From an uncultured virus (IMG/VR IMGVR_UViG_3300044858_002734) (taxonomy: Duplodnaviria; Heunggongvirae; Uroviricota; Caudoviricetes), in the IMG/VR virus record IMGVR_UViG_3300044858_002734: DNA of 64,000 nt. The stretch is one strand, 5' to 3'. Both the position numbers and the translations under genes were made by a program. The notes under the pieces were generated by a model. The model worked only from the letters and a program-made list of their open reading frames with translations, was not told the DNA's origin and made no database searches. Positions within the stretch are counted from its first letter, which is position 1. Every line of letters begins with the position of its first letter. Shown here piece after piece: positions 2,969-63,070 of this stretch.

Positions 2969-3062
2969 ACTTTCTTTCCCTCATCATCATCAATCAGGGG
3001 ACACCCACACAGGCACCACCCTACAAAACCGGAAAGCAGATACCATAACCCAGATACCTTGT

Positions 3063-3275
3063 TCATACTGACCTCACTTTATCATTCGATGTAATCACAT
3101 ACCACCCAGACTCCTTGCAGGCAAACTTGGTAGGGTTCTGAAACCATGCTTCAATATCACCCTCATCCAAATCCCACTGCATCAATTCAAAGCGAACAAG
3201 ATCAGGACTAATCTGTCGCTGTATCTTACCGCCTTCCGCAGGATTCCTGCCCTCAGTCATGTAAAAGTAATTCAT
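3063..3275 (-). CDS. Hypothetical protein
   Basis: ORF with GGAGG RBS. Confidence 0.6.
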   Translation of the reverse strand: MNYFYMTEGRNPAEGGKIQRQISPDLVRFELMQWDLDEGDIEAWFQNPTKFACKESGWYVITSNDKVRSV

Positions 3276-3447
3276 ACAGACCTCCGCTTGACCAAACTAC
3301 CCCAGTTCACCTTAACCAGATTGGTAAGCCCATACCGCCTATTCAGTTCAGTGTCTATCTCATGGACTGAATACGGGCCAGCACCATGTAATGCGTGCTT
3401 TCGCAGGGCTACCAGTTCATGTCGCAGGTAACTGGTTATAGGGATTC

Positions 3448-3642
3448 TCATACTACTCCTATCAGGGCATCCACCAGCACCGTAACAGTTGTTTCAATAC
3501 TGACAATGCGGAGTGTACACCCTACATAGTCAGCCTTATTAGCATCCCAGTAATGCAGGACTTCTTCAAGGGTTTCCCCTTCATAATCCGCATACCAGTT
3601 ACCACTACGACTTTTAACCTGTAATACGTACTTCATACTCAT
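3448..3642 (-). CDS. Hypothetical protein, tandem paralog of 3692-3865
   Basis: MKYVLQ...YWD.N...G...RIV.ETTV. Confidence 0.65.
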   Translation of the reverse strand: MSMKYVLQVKSRSGNWYADYEGETLEEVLHYWDANKADYVGCTLRIVSIETTVTVLVDALIGVV

Positions 3643-40402: not shown

Positions 40403-40415
40403 AGAACACCTAGAT

Positions 40416-40486
40416 TAGCGGGGGAAGGAATCGAACCTTCACTGACTGGTTATGAGCCAGTCATGCTGCCATTACAATACCCCGCA
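40416..40486 (-). tRNA. tRNA-Met(CAT), possibly initiator
   Basis: Cloverleaf by hand: anticodon arm ACTGG-CTCATAA-CCAGT, T arm GAAGG-TTCGATT-CCTTC, 1:72 T:T mismatch, no encoded CCA. Confidence 0.88.
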
Positions 40487-40491
40487 ATAGT

Positions 40492-46997: not shown

Positions 46998-49529
46998 TTA
47001 TCCTTTATACTCCTTCTTTTCAAACCATGATTTACCGGGTGGCGATACTTCAAACTCCAATTCGATAGGTACGATAATCCAGTCCCATACCTTACGGAGT
47101 CTATTGATACCGTCAATGAACAACTGACTATATGCTGCTACATCGTCAGGATGCACTACACCTACTACGCTATCATGAATCTGCAGGAACAACTTGGCAC
47201 GGATGCCCGATTCCTTTAACTTAGATAGCACGTAACAGCATAACCACAGGTTAATGTGTCCACTGTCCCCCTGAATAGGCGTATTGATAGCTTGATTTCT
47301 TGATAGCGGCCCCGGTCGCCTGTACCCAGTATACAAGTCTACGAAACCAAGTTGCAAATAACTGTCCCATTGCCGTTCCTTCCATCGTTGATAACCGGGA
47401 AACTGCGTATTCCACATGTAATCATCGGTTATCTGCGCTAACCTAGTAAAGTCCTCTACAGTAGTAACACCTAAGTCAGATAGGTGGGTAAGCACAGGCT
47501 TATCATCTAGCAACTTAGGTTCCTGCAAGTGTAACTGCCGCCAGATAAGTGGCCCAGTCAACTTCCAATAACTACCATAGAATGAACCGAAAGTGTAACC
47601 CTTAGTAATGCTCCGTAAATCCTTACTGATTAATGCTTTATCAATGTTATATAGGTGTTCCCCTAGATCACGGTGCATATCTAGTTTAGGGTTAGATACG
47701 TATGCAATCAAATTAGGGTCTTTAGTATGGCAAGCTGCACCAGCTACTTCACAGCCCTTCAAGTCCGCTTCTACAATACACCAATCAGGATTCTGCGGAA
47801 TAAACAAGTCACGGATGTATTTAGCATACTCTTTATCAGTTTTGCTGATGTTTTGCAGGTTAGGCTTAGTACAGGAAGTCCTGAATGTGCGTGTTGAGTT
47901 TAACTGCATCTCGCAATGCAGTAAGCCCTTCTCGTCTAGCTCCCTGTTAATCTGTGCATAGTAGGTACCTATAATCTTGTTAAACTTCTTGACTCTGATA
48001 TATGAGTCTAGTCCTTCAATAGCTAAGTCAGTAAGTGCCTCTTCATCTACCGCCTCTTTCTTCTTATCAGTAAACTTGATAGCAGTATTACCTAGCACAT
48101 TGAACAGGATATGCCGTAACTGTACGTCAGACCCTAGATCAGTTGTATGCAGGAATATGTTATACCATTCCTTATAAATAGGTGTGGTTTTGAATAGCGC
48201 AATCGCCTCTTCCCGTTTAGCTTCAATTTCAGGCAGGTAAACCCCAATTAACGCCTTGTCAATGGCAATGCCGTTGCCTTCCATTACGCTAAAGGCACGC
48301 GCTACCTTAGTAAAGAACTCCACCCCATAATCAAAGCCCCGTCCTAGTGTGTTTCTGCGCGAGCAAAGGGTATCACGTTGTTTAAGGTACAAGTCGTATG
48401 TTAAGTACGAATCAATACCGCAATAAGTATATAACAGTTGCTTATCACATTTACCAATACGGTTGAAGTCGTTAGAGTTTTCTGCCTCTAGGTAATGGTT
48501 TACACCCCTGCTATAATCGTCTACACCAAACTGTAGCAAGGCTTGAAACTTTAGGCCACTGGCACTATTAGGATTAACGCAATGCGCCCCAATACAAGTA
48601 TCCCAAATCCAACCCTTTACAGCAACCTTAGCTAGTTTCCGTGTCCATCTATCTTCCATCTTGAGATTGTGAGCAATCTTCTTAATGGATTCGTCACCTA
48701 ATACCTGTTTCCACTTATCGGCTACTGCATCATTGTACTCAAACACTACTGCGTAGTTATCAATATCAGTACGTACAGATACACATACTATTTCATGCCC
48801 CGCATTATCAGGCTTTAGCCCTGTTGTTTCGTAGTCAAAAGCTATAACACTGCCTTCATGCAGACGGTCTAGGTAAAATAGTGCCTGCTTATCGGTGAGT
48901 ATCTTTACCCTGCCCTTTAGGTTACTGTAATCAGGCCACAGCGTAACTGGTACTGCCTGTGCTAGGTCTTGTTCGATGTAACGCCACAGTACCCCTGATT
49001 CATCACCGGCAGAAGGTGACATTAAGGGGTATGTGCAAATAACACGGGTATGTAATGTCTGATCTGGCGTTACTGTACCACGCCACATTTCAACGGTGCA
49101 TCCCTTGTCAGACCGATTACTATAGATAGCGGAAATTGCTGGTGAACCAAAAAGGATAGTGTAATCGGGTTTCAGTTCCTTAATGGTTTGATAAAGGTTA
49201 TAGGCACAACACTCTGCACCATGTACTAGGTTAGCGTAACTGATAGGTTCTTTTGCAACGGCGCAATGAGCTACAGGAACATAGTAGACGGTGTAACTAG
49301 GTAGTAAATCTAGGATAGGCTTAATGAAGTCCGCATTGACTGGAATCTTCATCATGTTTGCATAGTCAGATACCGCACCCCCAACAAGTAAAACTGTCTG
49401 ATTTCCCTCTTGAAGTTTATACGGCTGGTCGTACTTCGTACCAATATTGCTTAAGGGACACTTCGGGCAATGTGGTTTTGAAGGGACACTAGTTTGTGTT
49501 GCCGCAATATCAAAAAGGAAATCAGACAT
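46998..49529 (-). CDS. polA: Family A DNA polymerase with N-terminal UDG-like domain and 3'-5' exonuclease
   Basis: CPKCPL...WRG...TYP; FDYETTGL, HNLK; PNLQN, EAD...EV, R...K...FG..YG, NTPIQG, QIHDS. Confidence 0.92.
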   Translation of the reverse strand: MSDFLFDIAATQTSVPSKPHCPKCPLSNIGTKYDQPYKLQEGNQTVLLVGGAVSDYANMMKIPVNADFIKPILDLLPSYTVYYVPVAHCAVAKEPISYANLVHGAECCAYNLYQTIKELKPDYTILFGSPAISAIYSNRSDKGCTVEMWRGTVTPDQTLHTRVICTYPLMSPSAGDESGVLWRYIEQDLAQAVPVTLWPDYSNLKGRVKILTDKQALFYLDRLHEGSVIAFDYETTGLKPDNAGHEIVCVSVRTDIDNYAVVFEYNDAVADKWKQVLGDESIKKIAHNLKMEDRWTRKLAKVAVKGWIWDTCIGAHCVNPNSASGLKFQALLQFGVDDYSRGVNHYLEAENSNDFNRIGKCDKQLLYTYCGIDSYLTYDLYLKQRDTLCSRRNTLGRGFDYGVEFFTKVARAFSVMEGNGIAIDKALIGVYLPEIEAKREEAIALFKTTPIYKEWYNIFLHTTDLGSDVQLRHILFNVLGNTAIKFTDKKKEAVDEEALTDLAIEGLDSYIRVKKFNKIIGTYYAQINRELDEKGLLHCEMQLNSTRTFRTSCTKPNLQNISKTDKEYAKYIRDLFIPQNPDWCIVEADLKGCEVAGAACHTKDPNLIAYVSNPKLDMHRDLGEHLYNIDKALISKDLRSITKGYTFGSFYGSYWKLTGPLIWRQLHLQEPKLLDDKPVLTHLSDLGVTTVEDFTRLAQITDDYMWNTQFPGYQRWKERQWDSYLQLGFVDLYTGYRRPGPLSRNQAINTPIQGDSGHINLWLCCYVLSKLKESGIRAKLFLQIHDSVVGVVHPDDVAAYSQLFIDGINRLRKVWDWIIVPIELEFEVSPPGKSWFEKKEYKG

Positions 49530-49534
49530 GGGAA

Positions 49535-49861
49535 TTACCTGCTCTTTGTTGAACCTACCATAGCCCAACTATACATATTAGCTTCTGCTCGTCTACCAGC
49601 TGTATAAGCCGCTTCAATAGCAGCATCAAATTCAGCCTGACTCATAGCATAGAAATCAATGGTATGTATCTCATTGTATTTCATTTTATCTGTAGTAACC
49701 TTAACAAAGCCGCCTGATACTAGCGCATCAGCAGTATCTCTAATCAGGTTTCTTTCTACTTCTTCCCTAAATAATTTGGGGTTTCTATATGACTCTGCAC
49801 AAGCGCATGCAGTTATGTAACTGCCCATAATACGTCTGCCGGGTGGCTGTAACGAAAACAT
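49535..49861 (-). CDS. Hypothetical protein
   Basis: ORF with AAGGA RBS. Confidence 0.6.
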   Translation of the reverse strand: MFSLQPPGRRIMGSYITACACAESYRNPKLFREEVERNLIRDTADALVSGGFVKVTTDKMKYNEIHTIDFYAMSQAEFDAAIEAAYTAGRRAEANMYSWAMVGSTKSR

Positions 49862-49875
49862 AAGTATCCTTAGTA

Positions 49876-49996
49876 TGGTGGGTGATCACGGCGGCGGTTG
49901 CTCAGGCCCATCGCTTACCGACTACCACAGACAGATTACTTTCCAGAGTGACTTCTTGCTCCAGATAACTGCCCATCGTCTGACCGTGATCATCCC
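49876..49996 (-). ncRNA. Unknown structured RNA ending in stem+ACCA
   Basis: GGGATGATCACGG/CCGTGATCACCC closing helix, internal hairpins, 3' ACCA. Confidence 0.6.
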
Positions 49997-50001
49997 ATAG
50001 A

Positions 50002-50220
50002 TTACTTGCTAAAACTAGTACTCTTAAACAGCATACCGGATAGGAACGCAATACCCCAACCCTGTAGATAGGTGATATGCGGTGTGATAACTGCGGACTT
50101 GATCAGAACAGGCACAAGCCAATTCCACATTAGTGACACAATCCAACCAGTTAGTAACGAGAAGCCAGCAACAACAAACAGTCCAGCAAACAAAACAGAT
50201 AATCCAGTAATAATTTTCAT
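50002..50220 (-). CDS. Small membrane protein
   Basis: Hydrophobic; WNWLVP...ITYLQ.WG. Confidence 0.7.
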   Translation of the reverse strand: MKIITGLSVLFAGLFVVAGFSLLTGWIVSLMWNWLVPVLIKSAVITPHITYLQGWGIAFLSGMLFKSTSFSK

Positions 50221-50235
50221 AGTATTCCTTCTAAA

Positions 50236-50425
50236 GTGCCCGGCTATACGGGCGATCAAACAACCACTCTCACTGCGTCCAGTGAGCGATACGGGTAAAC
50301 ATTCCCGTCGCCATTGTGAACATAGGCATTGCTGCCTAGGGGTTCGCGGTTAATTCCAAGTTAAGTGCCCCCGAATTACGCATGTTCGCGGATATTACGT
50401 ACTACCCAGACAGAGGCGCGGGGCA
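50236..50425 (-). ncRNA. Multi-hairpin structured intergenic RNA(s)
   Basis: Four-way junction 50261-50352, hairpin 50238-50253, closed element 50366-50425. Confidence 0.55.
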
Positions 50426-50431
50426 ACAGGG

Positions 50432-51439
50432 TTACGTAACGCGCATAGGCATTACGATGATTTTGCCATCATCACGCGACGACACAATAGGCCCAAGTTC
50501 CTTACTAATATGCAGTGTGTTGTTTACAGCAAACACAAGCACCATAAAGGTAGGATTGACGATTACCGCAACCGTACCGGAAGCAGATACGGGAATAGTC
50601 TCGGTGTAATCCGCACCCTCCTCATTGCTTGCGCTAATAGTACATTCAGTATCCTTAACCTCTAGCTTAATAGCGGATGCGTTAATCAGCATAGCCCGTT
50701 TCAGGTACTCATTAATGTTATCTGGGAACCCTACTTCAATATAGGTATCATCAACAGTAGGGATAACCTGCTTGTAGTTAGGATACACTGCATCAATCAT
50801 ACGACCAGCAAGCAGGATTCCGCTAGCCGTCTTGAAGGCAATATAGTTACTATCAATAACATACTCGGTAATAGTTTCGCTTTTTACCAAGGAGATAAAG
50901 GACGGCATCAGAATAACATCCTTGCCAAACCCTGTTTCCCCTACAGTAACCTGCGACAGTCGTTTACCATCGGTAGCAACCATATCTGCACCGGACATGA
51001 AGATGCCCTGCAGAACCATACGGGTAGTGTCAGTAGATACATAACTTGCGCTAATGCCATAGCAATCCATAAACCGTGCGCTATCGAACGGAAATGGGGC
51101 AAGCTGACTATCATCCATCTTAGCCCAAGGTAGTTCCCCCTCGATCATAGCAAAGCGACCACGGGCCTTGCCAAACTTAATAACCATGTGATTATCCGTA
51201 ATGGTAATGTCCACGGTTTCGGAAGTCATGCTTTTCAGGAAAGCAATGATCTTCTTAGCAGGTACAAGTCCCTTGAAGTCTGTAACGAACGGCACAGAAA
51301 TAAACCGGTCTAGGTCTGTTGCCACAATCCGCTCACCTGTGAACTCAACACAGTTAAGCATTTCCATTGTGGTAGCAGCACCAATAACAGGTGACACGGT
51401 GTTAAGTGCAGTAAGCAGGTTTAGTCGGTTGATAGTCAT
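50432..51439 (-). CDS. dnaN: DNA sliding clamp (beta-clamp-like)
   Basis: ATDL, R..LQGI, VATDGKRL, YPNY.QVIP, VMPMR. Confidence 0.9.
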   Translation of the reverse strand: MTINRLNLLTALNTVSPVIGAATTMEMLNCVEFTGERIVATDLDRFISVPFVTDFKGLVPAKKIIAFLKSMTSETVDITITDNHMVIKFGKARGRFAMIEGELPWAKMDDSQLAPFPFDSARFMDCYGISASYVSTDTTRMVLQGIFMSGADMVATDGKRLSQVTVGETGFGKDVILMPSFISLVKSETITEYVIDSNYIAFKTASGILLAGRMIDAVYPNYKQVIPTVDDTYIEVGFPDNINEYLKRAMLINASAIKLEVKDTECTISASNEEGADYTETIPVSASGTVAVIVNPTFMVLVFAVNNTLHISKELGPIVSSRDDGKIIVMPMRVT

Positions 51440-52956: not shown

Positions 52957-54528
52957 TCATTTCTCCTTTATCCTACGCCAGAATGAACCACGAACAAACT
53001 TACCCGCCTCATACCCTTGTAACAGCACTACTTCTTTATGTATATCAGGACTTTTACCACGCGCTAATATACATGCGGTACGTGCTATCCTATACCGCTT
53101 TTCCAATGGGGTTTGCGATAGACTAAACACTGCAGTAGCATGGTCTAGCTTACGCTTATCCTCCCCAACTTGAACCGCACCAATACTAGTTACTTCAAAG
53201 CCTGATCGGTTTGATTGCGTAACTGTAAGGATACAGATCGGATACATGTTAGATAGTTTACGTAAATTCATCCATCGTGCATTTTCCTTATGGCGTTGTT
53301 CAATGCTGTTATCCCCTTCTTCTTTCCCCATGATGTCGGCATAGTCAATTACAACTACGTCAGGCATCCATCCCTGATTATCGCGGCAGTGTATTAGTTG
53401 CCGTTCAATCTCCTGTGTTGTCAACGTGTTATTAGGATAAACCTTAATCCGAAACTTGGTTTTGCCATTACGCCGCTTACTAATTTCCTTATGCGCGTTT
53501 AGCCCCTGCCAGCCCTTGTATTGCACGTCATGGGGTTCATAGGTGTAAGTAGGAACCCAATCCTTGCAGTGCTTACAAGAGGCACAAGGGGCATAACCGG
53601 GTGGTATTGTTGCCATCAATGCTTCCGGCGAATCAAAATCCTTTAGGCTATCCTCAACAGGTGTTTGTAGTTTAGTTTTATTTGTACTTACCTTGCAGGT
53701 TTGGTTTTGGTTAAGCAGACAATCTGTAACAGGAAAAGCATAAATACCTGTATGAGTAGGGTCTGATGCTGTATCCTGCGTACTCATGATATGGCCGATA
53801 CGGATAGAATTGTCATTCTTATCCATGTCACCAGCAGCAAACACAAGTACGTTCTTGGATGAATTATAGATTGATGCTGCTAGTGTATATAGACACCATG
53901 TTTTACCCGCCTTGGCAGTAGCAAGGAAAAAGACAAACTTACCCGGTTTGATATGGGATGATACTAGGTCACCAAATGCGCCACCCATCTGAATTAGCGG
54001 TTCTTCATTCAGGCTAGTAGCAACCTGTAGGGTTTCCCCCATATCCAGTACATCTAGTTCCTCACTATCATTAGTTTTGGAAGGTAATGTTTCGTATGCC
54101 TGTTGCGCTAGTTCTACATTATCTGCGTCTAGTGCAGATTCGATGTTATCCTTAGCCTTGCGTAGTGCCCTTTTCTTTAAAAAGTTTACTGTGTTATCAA
54201 TTTCAAAGCTAGGATTGATAACCTTAGCTTCGTCAATGGCAGTAATAAACTCTACCATTGCAGGCAGTACATCATCTGGTAATCTGAATGTACGTTGATT
54301 CTGATTAAGATACTCAATAATATACTGCTTCTTAGGTGCTGTCTTATGGGTCTTGTAGAAGGCAACACAAGCAGCCAGTACCACGTCTGCCCATTGCGTA
54401 GTCAGTAACCCTTTCCAATGGGGTATCTGCACAAAGCGTTTCAGGTAGTCATCATTATAGATAGCATTTTCAATGATGTCCCTTTCGATTACGGCGTCTG
54501 TGCCCGTATCTTTAATGACTATCTCCAT
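52957..54528 (-). CDS. DnaB-like replicative helicase
   Basis: AKAGKT, VVIDYADIM, TQSNR, EDKRK. Confidence 0.85.
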   Translation of the reverse strand: MEIVIKDTGTDAVIERDIIENAIYNDDYLKRFVQIPHWKGLLTTQWADVVLAACVAFYKTHKTAPKKQYIIEYLNQNQRTFRLPDDVLPAMVEFITAIDEAKVINPSFEIDNTVNFLKKRALRKAKDNIESALDADNVELAQQAYETLPSKTNDSEELDVLDMGETLQVATSLNEEPLIQMGGAFGDLVSSHIKPGKFVFFLATAKAGKTWCLYTLAASIYNSSKNVLVFAAGDMDKNDNSIRIGHIMSTQDTASDPTHTGIYAFPVTDCLLNQNQTCKVSTNKTKLQTPVEDSLKDFDSPEALMATIPPGYAPCASCKHCKDWVPTYTYEPHDVQYKGWQGLNAHKEISKRRNGKTKFRIKVYPNNTLTTQEIERQLIHCRDNQGWMPDVVVIDYADIMGKEEGDNSIEQRHKENARWMNLRKLSNMYPICILTVTQSNRSGFEVTSIGAVQVGEDKRKLDHATAVFSLSQTPLEKRYRIARTACILARGKSPDIHKEVVLLQGYEAGKFVRGSFWRRIKEK

Positions 54529-62992: not shown

Positions 62993-63070
62993 TGGTAGGC
63001 GTTAAGGGATTTGAACCTATGACCAAGATGGTATAAGCATCCTGCGCTAACCAGACTGCGCTAAACGACC
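62993..63070 (-). tRNA. tRNA-Ile(TAT), with stem mismatches
   Basis: D arm GCGC-AGTCTGGTTA-GCGC, anticodon arm GGATG-CTTATAC-CATCT, GGTTCAAATCC, 3' ACCA. Confidence 0.75.

Follow-up and report, generated by a model that had tools for sequence, protein, structure and literature searches.

Locus and fold of the element

The window analysed here is a stretch of 64,000 nucleotides (nt) from an uncultured virus of the Caudoviricetes (IMG/VR record IMGVR_UViG_3300044858_002734). It is a phage genome; a structural module occupies the plus strand, and the DNA-metabolism genes form a long operon on the minus strand. The public runs that contain the stretch are lake or freshwater metagenomes (20 runs listed, from 15 studies). 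Within this operon, positions 49876–49996 of the minus strand encode a 121-nt structured RNA element, which fills the gap between the gene of a 72-amino-acid (aa) membrane protein and the open reading frame (ORF) of a conserved 108-aa protein, ORF108. The element is a real, conserved and strand-specific structured RNA of an undescribed family.

All genes and RNA parts described below are read from the minus strand unless stated otherwise. In the order of the operon, a DnaB-like helicase (52957–54528) is followed by four small ORFs, a beta-clamp-like processivity factor (50432–51439) and the membrane-protein gene (50002–50220 from its ATG; 85 aa if begun, as in the ORF list, at the TTG at 50259), the stop codon of which lies 5 nt upstream of the element. 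The Shine-Dalgarno sequence (SD) of ORF108, AAGGA (49867–49871), is located 8 nt past the end of the terminal helix of the element, with which it is unpaired. ORF108 (49535–49861) stands between the element and the gene for a family-A DNA polymerase (46998–49529), whose ATG at 49529 lies 5 nt past the ORF108 stop. Downstream of the polymerase are a clamp loader, an SSB-like protein, an exonuclease and then tRNA-Met.

The minus strand of 49876–49996 reads as a preliminary description of the sequence had reported. Its minimum-energy RNA fold (-44.6 kcal/mol) consists of a closing helix (P1), a long hairpin (P2), two small 3' helices and a free ACCA tail; RNA positions are numbered i = 49997 minus the coordinate. 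In P1, the 5' strand GGGAUGAUCACGG (49984–49996; i 1–13) forms 12 pairs with CCGUGAUCACCC (49880–49891; i 106–117), leaving A4 bulged, and the single-stranded tail ACCA follows at 49876–49879. The junction J1/2, UCAGACG (49977–49983), leads into P2 (49927–49976; i 21–70), the long hairpin already recognised in the preliminary description, which is made up of a basal helix, a variable internal loop and an apical helix. The apical stem pairs i 32–38 with i 49–55 and, together with its 10-nt loop CAAGAAGUCA (49949–49958; i 39–48), spans 49942–49965. The remainder is a nearly invariant 3' core domain (49892–49926; i 71–105), which in the minimum-energy fold contains a GUCG/CGAU hairpin and a GGC/GCC helix.

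The second hairpin proposed earlier, CGGU/ACCG, is a possible pairing of this core, but it is one of three that are mutually exclusive, the others being the minimum-energy arrangement and the GUGGU/ACCGC helix predicted by RNAalifold. Because the core is so invariant, comparison cannot decide among them; a single G-U to G-C change between the window and its closest relative favours the GUCG/CGAU hairpin. A pseudoknot between UCAG of J1/2 and CUGA at i 92–95 is possible from the sequence, and since both segments are invariant it leaves no covariation signal.

When the fold was repeated with 45 nt of flanking sequence on each side, the same domain formed, and the SD and AUG of ORF108 remained outside it, both in the window and in the relative described below. 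The fold of the single sequence makes only a weak case (z-score -2.25; 3 of 200 shuffled sequences fold as well), and inverted repeats are common in the window, where 52 pairs have arms of at least 11 nt within 200 nt, with P1 not among the 25 longest. That the structure stands above chance follows from paired conservation in the relative. Together with the comparisons below, this identifies the element as a non-coding RNA domain of about 120 nt that folds on its own, lies inside a replication-gene operon and is read in the same sense as its genes.

Conservation, covariation and distribution

The sole full-length relative was found in an IMG/VR contig of 53,120 nt (L001), in which the element occupies L001:3554–3675. 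The gene order is the same, and the polymerase and ORF108 share 87% and 67% aa identity, respectively, with those of the window. At the nucleotide level, identity amounts to 74% for ORF108, 82% for the membrane ORF, 80% for the clamp and 83.5% for the polymerase. Within the element it is unevenly distributed: 44 of 46 positions are identical at i 64–109 and 92% in the first 25 nt, as against 66% in the variable part of P2. J1/2 is invariant, and A4, bulged in the window, is paired in L001. One sequence feature of the preliminary description did not persist, as both copies of the repeat CGATGGGC (CGAUGGGC) are altered in L001.

Structural conservation was assessed from the alignment of the window with L001 under a 34-pair model (P1, 12 pairs; base of P2, 8; apical stem, 7; 3' helices, 4 and 3). 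All 67 model cells that hold both letters are standard pairs, while sliding the partners by 1–3 columns lowers pairing to 33–63%. The two sequences differ at 28 columns, 17 of them paired. Four pairs have changed on both sides and seven on one side via G-U, so that 11 of the 12 changed pairs remain standard; the twelfth (columns 38–51) becomes a bulged C opposite a deleted U. In P1 alone, two of the 12 pairs have changed on both sides (U-A to C-G and C-G to G-C) and two more from G-C to G-U.

Chance retention was estimated by placing an equal number of substitutions at random. For P1 and the apical stem, the two helices that the preliminary description had drawn from the window alone, all pairs were kept in 3 (transition share 0.5) to 44 (transition share 0.67) of 300,000 trials. 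When all helices were taken together, this happened in 0 and 2 of 300,000 trials, and with P1 by itself in 0.08–0.7% of 200,000 trials.

Covariation, which the preliminary description had named as a check, is thus present in L001, and it is present in metagenome contigs as well. These variants are partial and of depth below 5; differences near contig ends were not listed, seven differences were not displayed, and the apical versions were rebuilt by script. In an X7 contig, A37 is replaced by G, turning an A-U pair into G-U. In two X12 contigs, all listed differences fall in the P2 arm, except a C84 to A change in one (depth 3.6, possibly an error) that breaks either candidate pairing of that base. 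In the first X12 version the apical stem has six pairs, five of them changed on both sides relative to the window; the second has six pairs and a bulge, with two double and two single changes. Across five versions (window, L001, X7 and the two from X12) the apical stem therefore has 6–7 pairs each, and its loop CAAGAAGUCA is identical in all. Moreover, at the base of P2 both L001 and one X12 contig have gained an A in the 5' strand and a U in the 3' strand, as if a pair had been inserted.

The strand on which the element acts is indicated by several measurements. Of the 34 modelled pairs, six are G-U in the window, and more are in L001; the opposite strand would have A-C mismatches in their place. 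Folding of the sense RNA gives z-scores of -2.25 (window) and -2.93 (L001), compared with -1.48 and -0.13 for the antisense RNA, and the DNA folds of the window are weak (-1.40 and -1.47). Neither a 41-aa antisense ORF that covers the element on the plus strand (49875–50000) nor the short sense ORFs across it are kept in L001.

The element belongs to no family in Rfam 15, where none of 4227 models (including those for signal recognition particle (SRP) RNA, 6S, Y RNA, riboswitches and ribozymes) matched at its gathering score; over 49800–50060 nothing was found even at E<=10, including with the tRNA model RF00005. ARAGORN detected only two ordinary tRNAs in the window (40415–40487 and 62993–63070) and neither a tRNA nor a transfer-messenger RNA (tmRNA) at the element, and both ARAGORN and Rfam do detect a tmRNA in another locus (L077), which shows that the search works. 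The earlier view that the element is a genuine strand-specific, non-coding structured RNA, neither tRNA nor tmRNA and with no T-loop, is borne out: it contains no T-arm sequence. No description of it was found in Rfam or in general literature searches, the latter too broad to show absence from print.

Further relatives were sought by sequence, profile and structure. The covariance model R1 scores the window at 145.1 bits and the L001 element at 138.7 bits, and everything else in 60 sources at 11.9 bits or less. A blastn search with 171 nt against 50,697 phage records gave no match. In IMG/VR, searches with the polymerase protein, the ORF108 profile, an 18-mer and a 16-mer returned only L001 and duplicates, the other 31 of the 32 matches to the 16-mer scoring at most 11.9 bits with R1. 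Among metagenome contigs, none of 89 pattern matches to the ORF108 profile was a relative, and the three matches to the 18-mer have unrelated flanks; among genome contigs, none of 23 matches to the ORF108 profile was a relative either, and a gapped DNA pattern found nothing. With filters off, R1 found nothing credible in 10 loci that carry homologues of the membrane protein (best 11.1 bits).

A polymerase profile retrieved 27 viral loci, including L009 (49% identity) and L010 (42%). Both lack the element, ORF108 and the membrane ORF: in L009 the clamp is followed by a 155-nt gap with unrelated hairpins and then by the polymerase, and in L010 the clamp leads directly to the polymerase. The three features thus come and go as a block. 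ORF108 homologues form only seven protein clusters (65–95% identity), and the clade is therefore narrow; as far as sequence searches reach, the family appears so far in one narrow clade of uncultured freshwater phages. Of the 27 loci, 12 were scanned with ARAGORN, which detected no tRNA in them.

Two observations concern these more distant loci. The clamp-polymerase gap of L009 (L009:3340–3494) contains four unrelated hairpins (z -2.5), in which the Shine-Dalgarno GGAG is paired with an upstream CUCC, a different way of gating the same polymerase gene. In L010, the beta-clamp-like gene (L010:2406–3496) is split over three frames (2406–2564, 2488–2910 and 2996–3496), by possible frameshifts or assembly errors.

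Proposed release from the operon transcript or possible action as a leader

No sigma-70-like promoter or terminator-like site touches the element, which would therefore be co-transcribed in a polycistronic RNA. With the SD and AUG of ORF108 outside the fold, the element leaves the ribosome-binding site unmasked and does not qualify as a classical riboswitch. The reading that we put forward, tentatively, is that this co-transcribed domain is excised in the manner of a tRNA, the product being a stable RNA that binds a partner in trans.

The placement of the element is the most telling feature for excision. The two tRNA genes of the window (40415–40487 and 62993–63070, minus strand) are embedded between coding regions in the same manner: tRNA-Met in the order stop codon, 5 nt, tRNA, 13 nt, ATG, and tRNA-Ile(UAU) in the order stop codon, 6 nt, tRNA with encoded CCA, 15 nt, ATG. 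A tRNA(CAU) of the relative (L067:1501–1577) follows a stop codon by 5 nt, has an encoded CCA and is succeeded by an SD and ATG. To be freed from the polycistronic RNA, such embedded tRNAs depend on host ribonuclease P (RNase P) and 3' nucleases. The element occupies an equivalent slot. In the window, the stop codon is followed by 5 nt ending in U, then by GGG...CCC-ACCA, 14 nt with the SD, and the ATG; in L001, 8 nt likewise ending in U precede GGG...CCC-CCCU, the SD and the ATG. Both U-1 and G+1 are thus kept. Among the tRNA genes, the CCA is encoded in half, being present in tRNA-Ile and the relative's tRNA(CAU) and absent from two tRNA-Met genes (one around L068 1503–1574).

The geometry of P1 is consistent with this placement, as it offers the helix of about 12 base pairs (bp) with a paired G+1 that characterises RNase P minihelix substrates, with 13 pairs in L001 and the G1-C pair retained. 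Passages of PMC11143913 describe cleavage by RNase P of hairpin models comprising the acceptor stem, T-stem and T-loop, as well as processing of non-tRNA RNAs that include the phage M3 RNA and the C4 antisense RNA. Excision by tRNA-processing enzymes is therefore plausible from placement and helix geometry. The slot (stop codon, 5–8 nt, RNA, 13–18 nt with SD, ATG), U-1/G+1 and the helix of 12–13 bp speak for the tRNA-like release suggested in the preliminary description; of the tRNA-like end, no more than half is conserved.

According to the proposed mechanism, the element would be made as part of the polycistronic transcript, and the host enzymes that release the operon-embedded tRNAs would also cut it out. 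RNase P might cleave between U-1 and G+1, guided by the 12–13 bp helix and the unpaired NCC tail, after which trimming, and if necessary CCA repair, would complete the 3' end. The stable RNA would be protected by its long terminal helix and, through its conserved loop and core, would bind some factor in trans. These cuts would also separate the ORF108-polymerase message from the upstream message.

Several findings weigh against this proposal. The ACCA tail, which the preliminary description had taken for a tRNA-like end, reads CCCU in L001, so that only two Cs are common to both, and the tail is no better conserved than the surrounding spacer. No T-loop or T-arm sequence occurs in the element. 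U-1 can pair with A118 in the window, and pairing of U-1 with the 3' tail is unusual in tRNA precursors. The tRNA genes closest to the element lie at distances of 9.4 kb and 13 kb, so that it is not part of a tRNA cluster. Coverage from an RNA library consists of one 2287-nt X2 contig, identical over 49600–50300, which cannot show ends and may represent DNA carry-over; coverage gaps of X6, X7 and X12 at the site are uninformative. Only two full-length sequences are available, and the joint absence of the element, ORF108 and the membrane ORF in L009 fits a cis-acting leader equally well. Moreover, according to passages of PMC4919913, RNase P measures the stack of acceptor and T-stem from the elbow and needs the T-loop or a similar loop.

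With respect to partners in trans, the reverse complements of the P2 loop and the 3' loop matched nothing in the window beyond the element itself or chance. As weak context, three of eight non-redundant viral loci with distant homologues of the membrane protein (32–43% aa identity) have a tRNA or tmRNA gene no more than 1.5 kb from the homologue. The neighbours of the homologues in L070, L071, L077 and L079 are tRNA-Asp, two tRNA-Lys genes or a phage-borne tmRNA, the tRNA genes being found in L070 and L071 and the tmRNA in L077 and its near-duplicate L079. The tmRNA at L077:1940–2348 scores 88.6 bits with Rfam, and its tag ends in ...YAYAA.

The closest parallels in known systems are rnaC (species 1; 139 nt) and rnaD (species 2; 119 nt, very close to the element in size) of phage T4 (NC_000866). 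These, too, are phage non-tRNA RNAs of no known function; they belong to a tRNA-type transcription unit, and neither has a promoter or terminator to itself. There is no homology, since R1 has no match in the corresponding T4 region (L034). The T4 RNAs lie in a tRNA cluster, whereas the element is located in a replication operon 9–13 kb from tRNAs, and rnaC keeps a tRNA T-arm, which the element does not have. Non-tRNA substrates of RNase P, as portrayed in passages of PMC11143913 (pre-4.5S, M3, the C4 RNAs of P1/P7 and hairpin models), have paired ends, an unpaired C-rich 3' tail and a U before G, and some are also phage-borne; the CCA of the element, in contrast, is not conserved, and its cleavage is only predicted. 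The likeness to M3, C4 and 4.5S is one of description, and the comparison at the sequence level is the negative Rfam scan, which included the small SRP RNA.

The element is a clean example of a phage non-tRNA RNA with covariation-supported helices, an invariant loop and core and no Rfam relative, and it would be a stable one under the excision proposal. The roles of phage stable RNAs such as T4 species 1 and 2 have gone unexplained for decades. If the element is indeed released by tRNA-processing enzymes, phages would use the tRNA maturation machinery for other RNAs and for operon punctuation.

A cis-acting leader is nearly as likely as excision, although by itself it too is rather unlikely. 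The folded domain would stay on the ORF108-polymerase message, 8 nt ahead of the SD, either as a 5' stabiliser or as a binding site through which the ORF108 protein, the polymerase or a host factor sets translation of ORF108 and, via coupling, of the polymerase. The element lies directly upstream of ORF108, occurs together with it in the window and L001, and is absent together with it in L009 and L010, a pattern based on four genomes, two that have the element and two that lack it. Its invariant loops would suit recognition by a protein. In neither phage, however, does the element overlap or pair with the SD or AUG, and a closing helix of 13 bp cannot act as a switch.

The start of the polymerase gene is itself relevant to a leader. 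The ATG at 49529 is likely the true start, judging from the resulting length of 843 aa, which equals that of a relative (P0008). This codon, 5 nt past the ORF108 stop, and the next 18 nt are engaged in a long-range helix of 19 bp (49528–49510 with 49413–49395). The segment 49385–49545 folds with -53.5 kcal/mol (z -6.4) and shares 95% nt identity with L001, well above the polymerase overall. This arrangement looks like translational coupling to ORF108 or autoregulation by the polymerase. With its ATG locked in the helix, polymerase output probably depends on translation of ORF108, and whatever sets the latter would then set the former. The element lies in this operon, next to a polymerase start codon that itself sits in a conserved RNA helix, and a leader at this site would constitute a new control layer for the phage replisome.

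The ORF108 protein has no Pfam or PHROG match and no RegA-like domain in Pfam, and a search against the ESM Atlas gave no usable match. In an AlphaFold2 model (mean pLDDT 63) the order of elements is strand-helix-helix-strand-strand-helix-strand. Foldseek found nothing in the PDB at E<=0.001, only generic ferredoxin-like matches; the weak ones (E >= 0.003, TM about 0.45–0.55) include ribosomal S6 and S10 and RRM domains as well as monooxygenases and PII-like proteins, and many of the matched proteins do not bind RNA. The model would agree with an RNA-binding role, though it does not demonstrate one. One X12 contig (depth 3.8) joins 49666 to 49814 within ORF108, skipping 147 nt, or 49 codons, in frame.

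Phage translational operators such as the T4 gene 43 operator, the RegA sites and the gene 32 pseudoknot are short and overlap the ribosome-binding site. The element resembles these operators in that a structured RNA stands in a replication operon, immediately before a cistron leading into the polymerase. It differs in being 121 nt long and self-closing and in ending 8 nt before the SD, with no overlap.

Less probable readings and the polymerase gene

A pure processing signal, that is, a structure that exists only to be cut by RNase P, III or E and thereby separates the fates of two messages, with no role for the released piece, is unlikely. It would account for a slot of the same kind as that of embedded tRNAs, for the long terminal helix and for the lack of an own promoter or terminator. 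A cutting signal, however, needs neither a core identical at 44 of 46 positions nor an invariant 10-nt loop at the tip of a stem that covaries freely, nor an invariant J1/2; the invariance of these parts points to a specific three-dimensional shape or partner. In plant mitochondria, t-elements are tRNA-like structures that serve as signals for processing of mRNA ends. The element shares with them a tRNA-like terminal helix in a longer transcript between coding regions, at which cutting would define mRNA ends. T-elements occur in a different kingdom of hosts and keep the shape of acceptor and T-arm, the latter missing here; unlike in t-elements, the interior of the element is strongly conserved, which suggests more than a cutting signal.

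Still less credible is a ligand-sensing aptamer or an undescribed self-cleaving ribozyme within the operon. The architecture would be suitable, with a closing helix, a variable arm bearing a conserved loop, a conserved junction and core and the possible UCAG/CUGA pseudoknot, and ribozymes are known to occur between phage genes. Yet there is no Rfam match even at E<=10, and no hammerhead, twister or other core motif was recognised by eye. For a riboswitch an expression platform is missing: in neither phage does the fold include the SD or AUG, and no terminator-like site follows the element. Furthermore, the P1 helices of riboswitches are usually far less stable than 12–13 bp.

It is comparably improbable that the element is a rewired tRNA mimic, released by RNase P and CCA repair, that during replication would engage a tRNA-gripping host factor in trans, serving as its decoy or sponge. 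In such a mimic, the terminal helix would represent the stack of acceptor and T-stem, and UCAGA would replace the T-loop, the next 87 nt being an insertion at the position of the T-loop bulge. This insertion would bring the D-loop-like AGUCGGUAAGCG, which is close to the D-loop of the phage tRNA-Ile, back to form an elbow, and the sponged factor might be, for example, a tRNA-cutting defence nuclease. The invariant UCAGA that follows G13 shows, judged by eye, the letters U..RA of a T-loop pentanucleotide. By eye as well, AGUCGGUAAGCGA at 49911–49923 (i 74–86) resembles the D-loop and 3' D-stem of the phage tRNA-Ile (AGUCUGGUUAGCGCA); the tRNA model does not match. The 9-mer TAGTCGGTA is found in none of the tRNA genes among the retrieved loci, and the likeness to a D-loop is an impression. 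If true, the mimic would represent a new class of phage counter-defence RNA.

A DNA-level element (a structure for single-strand initiation or an origin) or a functionless inverted repeat kept by descent is very improbable: the location within replication genes and the abundance of inverted repeats in the window would suit it, but the folds of the DNA are weak; on the opposite strand, the G-U pairs and several of the changes from G-C to G-U would be A-C mismatches; the pairs survive random drift in no more than 44 of 300,000 trials; and conservation of the core exceeds that of the coding sequence beside it.

Finally, the polymerase downstream of ORF108 is itself divergent. Its identity to polymerases of cultured phages is at most about 25% (tblastn: 921 records, all below 60%; 21–25% among the matches listed). 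It has an N-terminal extension of about 220 aa that contains a CxxC motif and has no Pfam match to PF03167. Polymerase relatives with about 30% identity (P0018–P0034) carry an N-terminal uracil-DNA glycosylase family 4 domain (PF03167).

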